Part shown: positions 31,506 to 34,654 of the stretch, piece by piece
Layout: the number at the start of each line of letters is the position of its first letter
Numbering within the stretch: the stretch's first letter is position 1
Source of the DNA: an uncultured delta proteobacterium
GTDB lineage: Bacteria; Desulfobacterota; Binatia; UBA9968
Assembly: GCA_963816145.1 (NCBI GenBank)
Contig: CAWFJP010000004.1
Span: 352,001-416,000 of the forward strand
Length of the DNA stretch: 64,000 bases
Reading direction: 5' to 3'
Position numbers and translations under genes: made by a program
Notes under the pieces: generated by a model
The model's input: the letters and a program-made list of their open reading frames with translations, nothing else
The model's database searches: none
Told to the model about the DNA's origin: nothing

Positions 31506-32861
31506 ATGTCTTTAATCAGAGTATCACGCATGGCTATTTTGGCTCTTGCAATGGCGGTTGCCCTGCCGGCAAGGGCGCAACAACCGTCCGTGACACCGAC
31601 TCCGGCGCCGAGTCCTAATCAACCGAGCCCAAGTACTCAGCAGCCGCCAGTTCCCGGTGATCCCAACGTGCCTCCAGGACCGCGGCCGCCGGTTTTGCCA
31701 CGGCGTATCCCCGCGCCCGTGCAAGTCCCTCCTGGGCAAGCGCCTGCTCCCGCAGCCGTTCCGGGACCTCCTCTTCCGACCCCATTGCCGCCGAATCAGG
31801 CGCCGCCAGTTGGTGGCGATTCCAGCGCCCCGGCGCCGCAACCTGCGCCAGCGATTCCCGTGCCGTCAGCGCGGCGCGGCATTTCCGGACAGTCCATTCC
31901 CGCCGGCGGCATGGTTTCGCTTAACTTTAACCGCGCTGACCTGGTCGAAATCATCCACATCATCGCCCAACAATTAAGGTTGACCTACACCATCGATCCC
32001 GAGGTCAAAGGTACGGTTACGATCAATAGCGCTGAGCCGCTACGCTCAGAGGATTTGATGCCGATATTCCACCAGCTTTTACGCATGAATGGCGCGGTGG
32101 CGGTGCGCACCGGCAACCTTTATCACATCATGCCGATCAAAGACGGCAAGGGGTTAGCACGCCCGTTGGCGCAAGGGCGCGAAGATAGTTTTGCCTTGCA
32201 GCTCATCCCGGTGCGATTTTTTACGGTCGCCGAAATGAAGCGGGTTTTGACGCCGTTTTTGCAGCCGGGCGCTGAGATCGTCGATAATCCGCGCGGCAAT
32301 TTCTTGATCGTGATGGACACGCCGCTCAATATACAGCGTCTTGTGGAAATCGCCGATCTCATCGACGTTCAAGTGTTTGCCGGCACGCGCATGGAGATTT
32401 ATCAGCCGAGAATTGCCAGCGCCGAGGAATTGTCGCAAGAGATGACTAAAGTCATGCAGTCGTTTTCCGCCTCCTCGCCCCAATCCGAAAACTTTGCCGC
32501 GCAGTTCATCCCGCTGCCAAGAATCAACCAGCTACTGGTGATCGCCCACAGCGAAGCCGCCTGGACCTACGCTAAACGTTGGCTCGACCGCATCGACGTG
32601 GTTGCCGAAGGCCCGGGTCGTAGGATATTTATCTATCCGGTGGAGAACGGTAAGGCGACGGAGCTAGCTGATGTGCTTAGTCAAGCGCTCGGTCTGCCTT
32701 CGACGGGTTCAAAAGTAAGCACGCAAACTTTGCAGAGTATCCATCGCTCGTCATCAAGCAGCTCCAACCAATCTGGTAACTACGGCCAGTCAAGTGGCTC
32801 GAGTCAGTTTGGTTCGGGTCAGTTTGGTTCGGGGAGTATGCAGCAGGGGCAAACACGATGA
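31506..32861 (+). CDS. gspD: Secretin N-terminal part: signal peptide, Pro-rich linker, N0-N1-N2 and first half of N3
   Basis: AAGGAG RBS, ARA|Q signal, VSLNFNRADL (N0), IFIYPVENGKATELADVL (start of N3). Ends in a Ser/Gly/Gln low-complexity loop. Confidence 0.85.
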   Translation: MSLIRVSRMAILALAMAVALPARAQQPSVTPTPAPSPNQPSPSTQQPPVPGDPNVPPGPRPPVLPRRIPAPVQVPPGQAPAPAAVPGPPLPTPLPPNQAPPVGGDSSAPAPQPAPAIPVPSARRGISGQSIPAGGMVSLNFNRADLVEIIHIIAQQLRLTYTIDPEVKGTVTINSAEPLRSEDLMPIFHQLLRMNGAVAVRTGNLYHIMPIKDGKGLARPLAQGREDSFALQLIPVRFFTVAEMKRVLTPFLQPGAEIVDNPRGNFLIVMDTPLNIQRLVEIADLIDVQVFAGTRMEIYQPRIASAEELSQEMTKVMQSFSASSPQSENFAAQFIPLPRINQLLVIAHSEAAWTYAKRWLDRIDVVAEGPGRRIFIYPVENGKATELADVLSQALGLPSTGSKVSTQTLQSIHRSSSSSSNQSGNYGQSSGSSQFGSGQFGSGSMQQGQTR

Positions 32862-34654
32862 AAAAATTTATCGCCCTATGGCTCATCCTAATCGTCGCAA
32901 ACTTTTCCGGTGCGCAGGCACAAAACCGTGCCGGAGCGTTCGCAGCGGCAGCCGCGCCCGGCCAAGTCCCAGTGCCGGCAGCGGCCACCCCCCAACTCAC
33001 CACACCGCCGGGACCTGGTAGCCCGAGACCAGCTACCCCGGGCCAACCTGGCCAGCAGCAGCAACAGGAGCAGTTGCGTGTCGTTGCCGACCCCGCGACC
33101 AACTCACTGATTATCTACGGAACGGTCCAGGAGTATCAAAACGTCAAGAACATCCTGAAAGAATTGGACGCGGTCCCACGGCAGGTGTTGATCGAAGCGA
33201 TGATATTGCAAATCGATCTAAAAGATGCCGAAGATTTCGGGGTTGACTATCAGCTGTTCACAAAATCGCGGCAGACTATCTTTGGAAAGACTTTTGGCTC
33301 GAATGCTGTGATCACGTCATTGGGGGCGAAACTGTCCCCCGCCGCACCATTTTTCGCAGGTGTAAATGGACTTACTGCAATCGTTGGCGATGATACAGTA
33401 TCCGCATTAATTCGTGCTGCGGCGACGGATTCTCGAATAAAGCTGATCTCATCTCCCAGCGTGATTGCCAGCGACAATAAGCCAGCGCGGATTCAAGTCG
33501 GCAGCGAGGAGCCAATCGCGACAGGTAGCGTCCAGGCGGCAACCGGTGCGGTTGCAAGTCTTTCAACCTCCACGACCATTCAGTACCGTAATACCGGCCG
33601 GATTTTGACAATCATCCCCCAGGTTAATTCGCAAGGCTTGGTCAATTTGCAGATCAAAGCTGAAGTTAGTGCGCGCGGTGACGATGTGACGGTTGGACAA
33701 GACAAATACCCCGCGTTCAATACCCAGGACGCGGAAACGACCGCTGTGGTTCAGGACGGTGACACGCTGGTCATCGGCGGACTTATCGGTGAGCTCAAAA
33801 GAAAGGCGCGGGTCGGCGTTCCCTACTTGATGGACATCCCGGTCATCGGCCGCTTCTTTGGCACTACCAGCGATGAATCCAGTCGCACCGAACTCATCAT
33901 GTTGATCACGCCGCGGGTCATTCGCAATCGGAGTGACTCTCGCGTGGTTACGGCAGAATTTAAAGCCGGTTTAGAGAAAGTCAGAACCGAGCTTGAACGT
34001 TATGAGAGGGACCGCGCGAAATTACTGCCGCCACCACCGCTGCCGCCACTGCCGGATCCAAACCAGTATTATCAATACGATCAGCAGCAGCCAGCACCGA
34101 CCAATCCGCCCGTTGGGCCGCGAACTTCGCTGCCGCCGGTGGTTGGCAACATCATGATCTTTTCGAATGATCCAATCACCGGTCGGATGATGCCGCCGAT
34201 GGCTGTACCGCAGGAGTCGGTTCCAGTTGCACTTGAGCAAACCCAACCTGTGGCTACAAAGCCCCTTGAGCAACTGAGTCGAAGCGCGGCCCCGGTGTTA
34301 CCAGCACCACCGGCCTATATGCTATCGTTTACGTCAGCGCCGCCGGTAGCCGCGCCTGCTGCTCCAGCGGTTCCAGTGATTCCGGCGCAGCAGCAAAAGC
34401 AAAAGTCTGCCGATCCCCGACGGATTTGGACCGTGCAAGTTGCTGCGATCGCGGAATCTAGCGCTGCCGAATCGTTGGCGCAGAAATTGCGCCGATTGGG
34501 ATACGACGCTTATATTCGCATCATCAAGAGCGAAACTAAGACCTGGCATCGGGTGCGGGTCGGGCAGCTGGAAAGCCAAAAAGATGCGGCTGACCTGCGC
34601 AACATCCTCAGCGCCAAGAAAGAACACAAAGACGCGTATATTGCTCTCTATTAG
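32858..34654 (+). CDS. gspD: Secretin C-terminal part: own signal peptide, second half of N3, secretin barrel, Pro-rich linker, SPOR domain
   Basis: MKKFIALWLILIVANFSGAQA|Q, VVADPATNSLII, PRQVLIEA, VPYLMDIPVIGRFF, ELIMLITPRVI, WTVQVAA...WHRVRVG. ATGA overlap with the upstream ORF. Confidence 0.88.
   Translation: MKKFIALWLILIVANFSGAQAQNRAGAFAAAAAPGQVPVPAAATPQLTTPPGPGSPRPATPGQPGQQQQQEQLRVVADPATNSLIIYGTVQEYQNVKNILKELDAVPRQVLIEAMILQIDLKDAEDFGVDYQLFTKSRQTIFGKTFGSNAVITSLGAKLSPAAPFFAGVNGLTAIVGDDTVSALIRAAATDSRIKLISSPSVIASDNKPARIQVGSEEPIATGSVQAATGAVASLSTSTTIQYRNTGRILTIIPQVNSQGLVNLQIKAEVSARGDDVTVGQDKYPAFNTQDAETTAVVQDGDTLVIGGLIGELKRKARVGVPYLMDIPVIGRFFGTTSDESSRTELIMLITPRVIRNRSDSRVVTAEFKAGLEKVRTELERYERDRAKLLPPPPLPPLPDPNQYYQYDQQQPAPTNPPVGPRTSLPPVVGNIMIFSNDPITGRMMPPMAVPQESVPVALEQTQPVATKPLEQLSRSAAPVLPAPPAYMLSFTSAPPVAAPAAPAVPVIPAQQQKQKSADPRRIWTVQVAAIAESSAAESLAQKLRRLGYDAYIRIIKSETKTWHRVRVGQLESQKDAADLRNILSAKKEHKDAYIALY

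Follow-up and report, generated by a model that had tools for sequence, protein, structure and literature searches.

A conserved type II secretion secretin encoded by two genes that divide its N3 domain

Two adjacent genes for one GspD

Bacterial secretins are described, in passages of a 2023 review (PMC10128026), as homo-oligomers of one chain. Here, we analyse a locus that encodes its secretin in two. The window, by which we mean the whole 64,000-nucleotide stretch under analysis (positions 352,001 to 416,000 of the forward strand of contig CAWFJP010000004.1, assembly GCA_963816145.1), belongs to an uncultured delta proteobacterium (Desulfobacterota; Binatia; UBA9968) and holds two overlapping open reading frames (ORFs), A and B, for the GspD secretin of a type II secretion system (T2SS). 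This two-gene GspD, with a second signal peptide at the start of ORF B, is real, conserved and selected. Positions below are those of the window, and all features named lie on its plus strand.

ORF A (31506-32861; 451 aa, starting MSLIRV) is the N-terminal secretin chain. Its start codon agrees with gene-caller starts in related proteins, and a protein of 450 aa called in a metagenome is 99% identical to it. The translation opens with a signal peptide (aa 1-24; 31506-31577) that would be cleaved after LPARA, before QQ, and continues with a Pro-rich stretch of about 110 residues (31578-31919), kept as a feature in both split and fused relatives. There follow the N0 domain (aa 139-208; 31920-32129; PF21305, E 2.1e-16) and the ring-building domains N1 and N2 (aa ~232-366; 32199-32603), recognised by two stretches of PF03958 and by alignment to the Escherichia coli GspD structure 5wq7. 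The first strand and helix of the N3 domain, hereafter N3a (aa 372-396; 32619-32693), align with 5wq7 residues ~246-263; the remainder of the chain is a Ser/Gly/Gln-rich tail (aa 397-451; 32694-32858) with a conserved TLQSxHRS motif.

ORF B (32858-34654; 598 aa) is the C-terminal secretin chain. It begins with a Sec-type signal peptide (aa 1-21; 32858-32920) consisting of MKK, a 13-residue hydrophobic core and SGAQA before Q, the presumptive cleavage site, and then an Ala/Pro/Gln-rich leader of the mature protein (aa 22-70; 32921-33067), whose conserved GAFAA..PGQ motif is common to split and fused forms. The second and third strands and the second helix of N3, hereafter N3b (aa 71-105; 33068-33172), come next: Pfam matches ORF B aa 70-109 to positions 30-69 of the 69 in the PF03958 Secretin_N profile. 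The secretin barrel and gate domain (aa 108-356; 33179-33925) is supported by alignment to solved GspD structures and by PF00263 (aa 188-356, E 1.5e-44). Beyond it lie a long helix (aa 358-389) and a Pro-rich linker of low model confidence (33929-34423 for both), and finally a SPOR domain (aa 523-595; 34424-34642; PF05036, E 2e-15), a peptidoglycan-binding type of domain modelled here with a strand/helix fold at a predicted local distance difference test score (pLDDT) of about 80. To end in a SPOR domain, tethered by about 130 residues of disordered linker, is unusual for GspD; fused and split relatives (L002-L024) have it too. In family f3, the secretin match stops before the SPOR domain, and several genomes carry a separate SPOR-containing ORF some 8 kb away.

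Every part of a GspD is thus found at the locus: N0, N1, N2, an N3 divided over both chains and the C-terminal secretin domain. The GspD equivalog profile TIGR02517 is covered from 1 to 299 by ORF A (177.3 bits) and from 269 to 600 by ORF B (254.5 bits), so that each half alone misses its cut-off of 351.35 and both jointly span the whole profile. Against 5wq7, ORF A aa 138-392 correspond to residues 6-263 and ORF B aa 63-414 to residues 278-624, and from these limits we place the break in the alpha1-beta2 loop of N3, between helix 1 and strand 2. The first-pass annotation, made from the letters of the window, had assigned a signal peptide, N0-N2 and the first strand-helix of N3 to ORF A, and an ATGA-overlap start, a Sec-type signal, the rest of N3 and the barrel to ORF B; translation, Pfam, TIGR02517 and the structural alignments bear out both assignments. 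To these features the present analysis adds the SPOR domain of ORF B and the Pro-rich stretch ahead of N0, of which that annotation makes no mention.

AlphaFold2 (AF2) models were of low confidence and were therefore used for the order of secondary structure only. In that of a fused relative (mean pLDDT 42.9), a strand-helix-strand-strand-helix pattern is seen for N1/N2, again at low confidence, and the N3 region reads strand 349-354, helix 360-370, strands 468-472 and 477-482 and helix 484-496, with pLDDT <50 over the loop at 377-464. The model of ORF B (mean pLDDT 53.4) gives, in order, an N-terminal helix (aa 2-16, within the signal peptide), the leader (pLDDT <50 over aa 16-70), N3b at 74-104 (strands 74-78 and 83-87, helix 90-104), the barrel, the helix at 358-389, the linker and SPOR.

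How does this arrangement compare with canonical GspD? The single chains of E. coli (5wq7), Vibrio cholerae (5wq8) and Klebsiella pneumoniae (PulD, 6hcg) have the same N0-N1-N2-N3-secretin order as A plus B, and they align over the full length once A and B are joined. They differ from the two polypeptides here, with two signal peptides and a break inside N3, also in the length of the N3 loop (about 15 unaligned residues in 5wq7 compared with about 100 here), and in the C-terminal SPOR domain on its long linker and the Pro-rich stretch before N0 that are found here.

Conservation and history of the break

The junction itself is an ATGA stop/start overlap (32858-32861), with the ATG of ORF B at 32858-32860 and the TGA of ORF A at 32859-32861; the identical overlap recurs in loci L002-L006 and L021. 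We checked it on assembled contigs of sequencing runs. Contigs of two DNA runs from two studies span 32300-33500 with 2-3 substitutions and no gaps, and a 370-nt contig from an RNA library spans the junction (32788-33157), also gap-free; a fusing indel, which would have made the split an error, was found in none of the three. The runs that carry the stretch are soil and wetland metagenomes, 14 DNA runs containing at least 0.8 of the sampled words.

To what extent is the split shared? Among 31 genomes of the same genus, 26 have the gene at E<=1e-60, and we read each junction. Ten of these are split at the same loop, as are two genomes of other genera, in three layouts overall. Seven (G000, G002, G022, G004, G009, G021 and G044) show the ATGA layout and a homologous ORF B start of the form MK(K/N)-hydrophobic-small-x-small. 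Three (G011, G042 and G041) have an in-frame stop, a nine-codon spacer with GGAG, an ATG of their own and a different signal peptide. Another ten are fused: nine are clean single ORFs of 982-1059 aa (G006, G024, G012, G016, G017, G005, G013, G018 and G014), and one (G043) combines a fused-type loop with a frame switch upstream. Fused forms have the loop sequence GSFGQQSQPLGAYAAVPAPGQ and no hydrophobic stretch. As for the rest, the signal-peptide stretch is present and frame switches are scattered through the gene in two (G003 and G019), one (G045) is unclassifiable and three (G020, G023 and G046) have lost the junction at a contig end. The frame switches at L016 (G003), L020 (G019), L026 (G045), L022 (G043) and, outside the genus, L042 (G089) could be either long-read indel errors or lineage decay. 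G005, counted among the nine clean fused forms and also a row in the trees below, is an unpublished genome; three more unpublished genomes (G082, G085 and G093) figure only in the table of ORF A matches in family genomes. Outside the genus but within the family, we read 19 loci, of which 17 are fused and two split: G089 has the ATGA overlap, and G086 a spacer of about 130 nt with further stops between the halves. In two further families of the order, five loci are likewise fused.

Such recurrence in independent assemblies and species goes beyond chance, and the split forms are seen in metagenome proteins as well. Within the best 120 matches to A, 106 are proteins of 425-460 aa with N3a and without N3b, ending at a few recurrent natural C-termini, and several of these A-only proteins sit on contigs of 20-200 kb. 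Within the best 120 matches to B, 57 are B-only. Sec-type signal peptides cleaved by signal peptidase I (SPase I) have a basic n-region, an h-region of about 7-15 residues and small residues at -3 and -1; ORF B of the window, with its MKK, 13-residue core and AQA before Q, conforms to this by rule-based inspection. Our signal-peptide calls combine such a check with evolutionary conservation, the stricter rule demanding a basic or polar n-region. By these measures, 55 of the 57 B-only proteins open with M followed by K or N and a hydrophobic run, and 52 pass the stricter rule, their uncharged run being 10-18 residues long (median 16) and their Q preceded by a small-x-small site. The sequence of the h-region varies widely while its character and the cleavage site are kept, as selection on a signal peptide predicts. 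Conversely, 48 of 49 proteins with both N3a and N3b have a loop free of hydrophobic windows (11-residue Kyte-Doolittle means of at most 1.25), and the lone exception, P0059, is visibly frame-scrambled. Single-chain relatives with the same hydrophobic stretch, another outcome that would have spoken against a genuine second signal, were thus looked for without success beyond P0059.

Both halves are under strong purifying selection. NG86 ratios of nonsynonymous to synonymous substitution (dN/dS) among eight split loci are 0.011-0.059 for the N0-to-N3a part of A (21 of 28 pairs computable) and 0.076-0.204 for B from N3b onward (18 of 28), with dS from 0.5 upward and the uncomputed pairs saturated. 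Few parts of A and B are as conserved as the two half-domains: 16 of 25 N3a positions are invariant over 51 A-type proteins, and 19 N3b positions over 48 B-type proteins, similar to the fused set. On the question raised by the first-pass annotation, whether relatives conserve the split and its second signal peptide, genus genomes, metagenome proteins and purifying selection together show that they do, over deep divergence.

In a 24-row tree of the A and B parts without the loop, the split rows do not form one clade, and the approximately unbiased (AU) test rejects a single clade for the ten split rows (p 0.0047). In a 43-row family tree, every split form falls in one 21-row clade (support 99) that is nested among fused genera and whose earliest branches are split. 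The fused form is ancestral for the family. The two halves tell different stories: the A-part tree unites all seven ATGA-type forms of the genus (98), whereas the B-part tree separates them, grouping fused G014 with G021 and G044 (98), and the G000 group with fused G006 (98). Such disagreement between the two trees suggests that recombination has occurred close to the junction. The phylogenies may reflect a single fission followed by re-fusions or recombination, or several separate fissions, possibly with transfers.

A candidate second, independent split lineage, reached via protein P0268 (L046-L094), was rejected, no second signal peptide being seen in its 49 metagenome loci. The N3a motif is present in 45 of the 49, with a downstream N3b in 30 of those 45; in 25 of these 30, N3a and N3b share a single uninterrupted frame, with about 170 Gly-rich loop residues between them. 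Of the other five loci, L058 is interrupted by an in-frame stop in the loop and four carry N3b in a different frame. On two short contigs with a stop in the loop (L047 and L050), the short ORF ends there and unrelated sequence follows; a third short contig with a loop stop is L051. Remote short matches from a representative search, considered as a second example, were rejected as well, as they were mostly fragments or frame-scrambled.

Operon context and predicted expression of the two chains

ORFs A and B close a complete T2SS operon, and they encode its secretin. Upstream, on the same strand, Pfam identifies GspE (22328-24028), GspF (24084-25301), GspG (25291-25737), minor pseudopilins (25649-27251), GspJ, GspK (27248-28267), a GspL-like PilM/PilN fusion (28319-29914) and GspM (29911-30579); E, F, G, pseudopilins, K, L and M accompany canonical GspD in its gsp operon as well. 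The GspL slot is taken by a 531-aa protein with PilM-like and PilN domains that also matches the Amuc_1101 PilM-like family. Immediately 5′ of ORF A, a 219-aa ORF (30827-31486) is a possible GspC, with weak NCBIfam GspC matches (E 0.0015 and 0.0047, far under the cut-offs) and no Pfam match. The ORF A query gives one match in G000 at E<=1e-50, and this genome has no second GspD-like gene; its one other secretin-domain gene is 29% identical.

A Shine-Dalgarno-like AGGGG (32845-32849) lies in the tail of ORF A, 8 nt before the start of ORF B. All seven ATGA-type loci have such a purine run (AGGGG, AAGGG or AGAGG) 8-10 nt upstream of the ATG, and the loci of the in-frame-stop layout have the GGAG within their spacer. 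The conserved QQGQxR end of ORF A can be put down to dual coding, as it also spells the Shine-Dalgarno site and CGATGA. Judged from these sequence features, the site in the ORF A tail and the ATGA overlap probably serve to couple translation of A and B.

A consensus scan of 30400-35000 found no more promoter-like and terminator-like sites than in shuffled sequence. Read with that limit, a terminator-like hairpin 3′ of ORF B (34765-34778) is a possible operon end, and another (32795-32821) falls inside the ORF A tail, in repeated loop sequence. From where might the DNA of the second signal peptide have come? Searched against the window's own genome, 32850-32935 matched only itself, and although its GC content is 0.46, compared with 0.56 for the gene, 209 of the 3086 windows in the two ORFs are equally low, so there is no sign of a foreign or duplicated source.

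Further out, a MadB-family AAA ATPase and a MadC-like VWA protein lie directly 3′ of ORF B (34831-37221), and the MadB-family ATPase adjoins the secretin in most related loci. Directly 5′ of GspE (19168-22307) are genes for a sugar transferase, a Wzy_C/O-antigen ligase-like protein and a cupin; polysaccharide genes therefore adjoin the T2SS operon.

A proposed secretin assembled from two chains

What would such a gene pair produce? In the reading that we favour, fission of the GspD gene occurred inside the long low-complexity N3 loop, and A and B would be co-transcribed at the end of the gsp operon and coupled in translation through the Shine-Dalgarno-like site and the ATGA overlap. Each chain would be exported by the Sec machinery under its own cleavable signal peptide. 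Chain B, with the second half of N3, the barrel, the linker and SPOR, would form the outer-membrane channel, SPOR tying it to peptidoglycan; chain A, with N0, N1, N2 and the first strand and helix of N3, would dock on B, completing the N3 fold in trans and putting N0-N2 beneath the channel, where they would face the inner-membrane platform. Export, cleavage, translational coupling, N3 complementation, the A:B stoichiometry and the role of SPOR are all steps that we infer. As a whole—a functional GspD, gene fission in the N3 loop, two exported chains and A docked on B—we consider this reading very likely, and we have good confidence that a functional T2SS secretin is made in two chains. Completion of N3 from A and B appears probable, given that both half-domains are conserved and that all three layouts cut between them. 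A complex prediction for A aa 290-402 and B aa 62-112, made from separate alignments, scored 0.31 against a mark of 0.32 without controls, and speaks neither for nor against binding.

Several observations weigh against this reading. Production, export and cleavage of either chain, as well as A-B binding, are predicted only, and the low confidence of the AF2 models makes their secondary-structure maps merely supportive. One of the two DNA runs is near-identical to the window and possibly its own source, and the RNA-library contig may derive from contaminating DNA. Among the B-only proteins, three have a hydrophobic start without a small-x-small site before Q, and two are mis-started or fragments. 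The gene contains several frame switches in G003, G019 and G045, and ORF B of G089 one, about 100 codons past N3b; in G019, a 1-nt insertion runs A into the frame of B, and a few copies could therefore be decaying rather than error-ridden.

Could the split as such be a pseudogene, or an artefact of assembly or sequencing? The frame switches in these four genomes and in G043 might be taken to say so, as might the apparent A-only ORFs of the P0268 lineage, which are truncations without a second signal peptide. Yet contigs from two independent DNA runs carry an identical junction without a gap, 12 genomes and more than 100 protein clusters from metagenomes have the same split, both halves give dN/dS far below 1 at dS of at least 0.5, and G000 has no intact paralogue. 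We give this explanation next to no weight. The proposal of the first-pass annotation that the locus represents an evolved two-chain secretin rather than a lesion, cut in a loop of N3 that tolerates it, accordingly draws support from the junction, from conservation and from selection alike.

Alternatively, A and B might yield a single chain by recoding, the ribosome shifting by -1 in the tail of A where the layout is ATGA, or reading through the stop codon where the layout is in-frame. B does lie in the -1 frame relative to A, in a frame open for 26 codons 5′ of its ATG, and the second layout has a single in-frame stop. Three layouts would, however, need three distinct recoding mechanisms, one of them across the spacer of G086 and its further stops, and no X XXY YYZ slippery site can be read in the DNA of the ORF A tail. 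The internal hydrophobic segment of a fused product should moreover arrest its export, and the n-region, short h-region and small-x-small site of a signal peptide would be senseless inside a chain. Recoding is, then, highly improbable, and hardly less so is the idea that the hydrophobic N-terminus of ORF B stays uncleaved and anchors B, or an assembly intermediate, in the inner membrane. The latter could draw on the three B-only proteins mentioned above and on the G086 form, which similarly lacks a clear small-x-small site; against it, the uncharged run falls below the length of a typical membrane helix, and the 52 proteins that keep the small-x-small site before Q keep it at a fixed distance from the GAFAA motif. 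A more substantial alternative, albeit an unlikely one, is that both chains are exported and A does not complete N3: B alone would be the channel and A a separate periplasmic adaptor, or a protein that binds elsewhere, with N3a kept for some other reason. Contact between A and B is, after all, a prediction, and free N-domain proteins are described for the mitochondrial T2SS in passages of PMC10128026. Barrel-less proteins reaching from N0 to N3 (P0248, P0250 and P0253) also exist, and free N-modules can therefore persist. A lone half-domain is nonetheless unlikely to be stable or conserved, whereas N3a and N3b are about as invariant as in fused relatives, and the break always falls between them, never at the N2/N3 boundary.

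The three barrel-less proteins are of interest in themselves: metagenome proteins of 344-351 aa, they run from N0 through a complete N3 with a short loop to a terminal helix, and the P0248 cluster has three members of equal length on 3.9-kb contigs. In the ESM Atlas, clusters with representatives of 484-531 aa and 51-316 members contain Secretin_N, with or without N0, and no Secretin domain. With Verrucomicrobiota or Planctomycetota as their most frequent source, they may be candidate free N-modules and are unverified leads.

The first-pass annotation knew of no described example of a split secretin. For bacteria this stands, as none was found in the full-text literature, subscription papers and supplements lying outside the search. 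Beyond bacteria it does not: according to passages of PMC10128026, the mitochondrial T2SS of some protists has separate GspD/GspDL and GspDN1-3. With its barrel and soluble N-domains as separate gene products, that system is the closest precedent for a two-chain GspD, a likeness that we draw from descriptions and not from sequences. It is eukaryotic and its products are imported, whereas here adjacent genes of a bacterial operon carry bacterial Sec signals on both products; the break, too, is within N3 here, leaving half of that domain on B and the full N0-N2 module on A. We therefore regard the relation as analogy and not as membership. That a core component may be split into two genes and yet remain functional has a precedent in TadB/TadC, which, according to passages of PMC6668835 on the type IV filament superfamily, arose by fission of an inner-membrane platform protein with two domains. 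It concerns another component, with fission between two repeated domains, and fission of a secretin is not mentioned in 12 of the 16 passages of that paper that matched a term search.

The position of the cut invites comparison with the modular architecture of secretins. Passages of PMC10550240 distinguish a C-module (N3, secretin and S) from a flexible N-module (N0-N2); on its own the N-module self-assembles, and a C15:N12 arrangement has been proposed, with the 15:12 mismatch described there as unresolved. In XcpD and PulD the modules are covalently linked, and the natural split nearly separates these two. The cut lies inside N3, however, rather than in the N2/N3 linker, so that the N-module would carry a docking half-domain. 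That N-rings might be exchangeable or non-equimolar, as the first-pass annotation had supposed, is speculation. A related idea, to which we assign a low probability, is that the split frees the N-module, in both stoichiometry and timing, from the 15-fold channel and is a natural answer to the symmetry mismatch between secretin and platform. If true, B would assemble first in the outer membrane, held by SPOR, and A would join it later from below, its half-domain complementing that of B, perhaps at a lower copy number (e.g., 12 per 15) or reversibly; the repeated switching between split and fused forms and the recombination around the junction would then reflect selection on assembly of the machine.

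Database labels of the halves are inconsistent ('general secretion pathway protein D', 'SPOR domain-containing protein', 'cell division septation protein DedD', 'Flp pilus assembly secretin CpaC' and 'partial'), so such genomes could be mis-scored by T2SS detection built around a single secretin gene. The split group consists of uncultured soil bacteria, and across many species the split has been kept by selection. A conserved two-chain GspD would mean that the N-module and the channel module of a bacterial secretin can be separate gene products, that a ring-building domain can be built from two chains and that a working Sec signal peptide can arise within a gene, in a disordered loop. It also offers a natural system in which to address how a 15-fold channel meets a 12-fold platform, and how the number of N-modules relates to that of C-modules.

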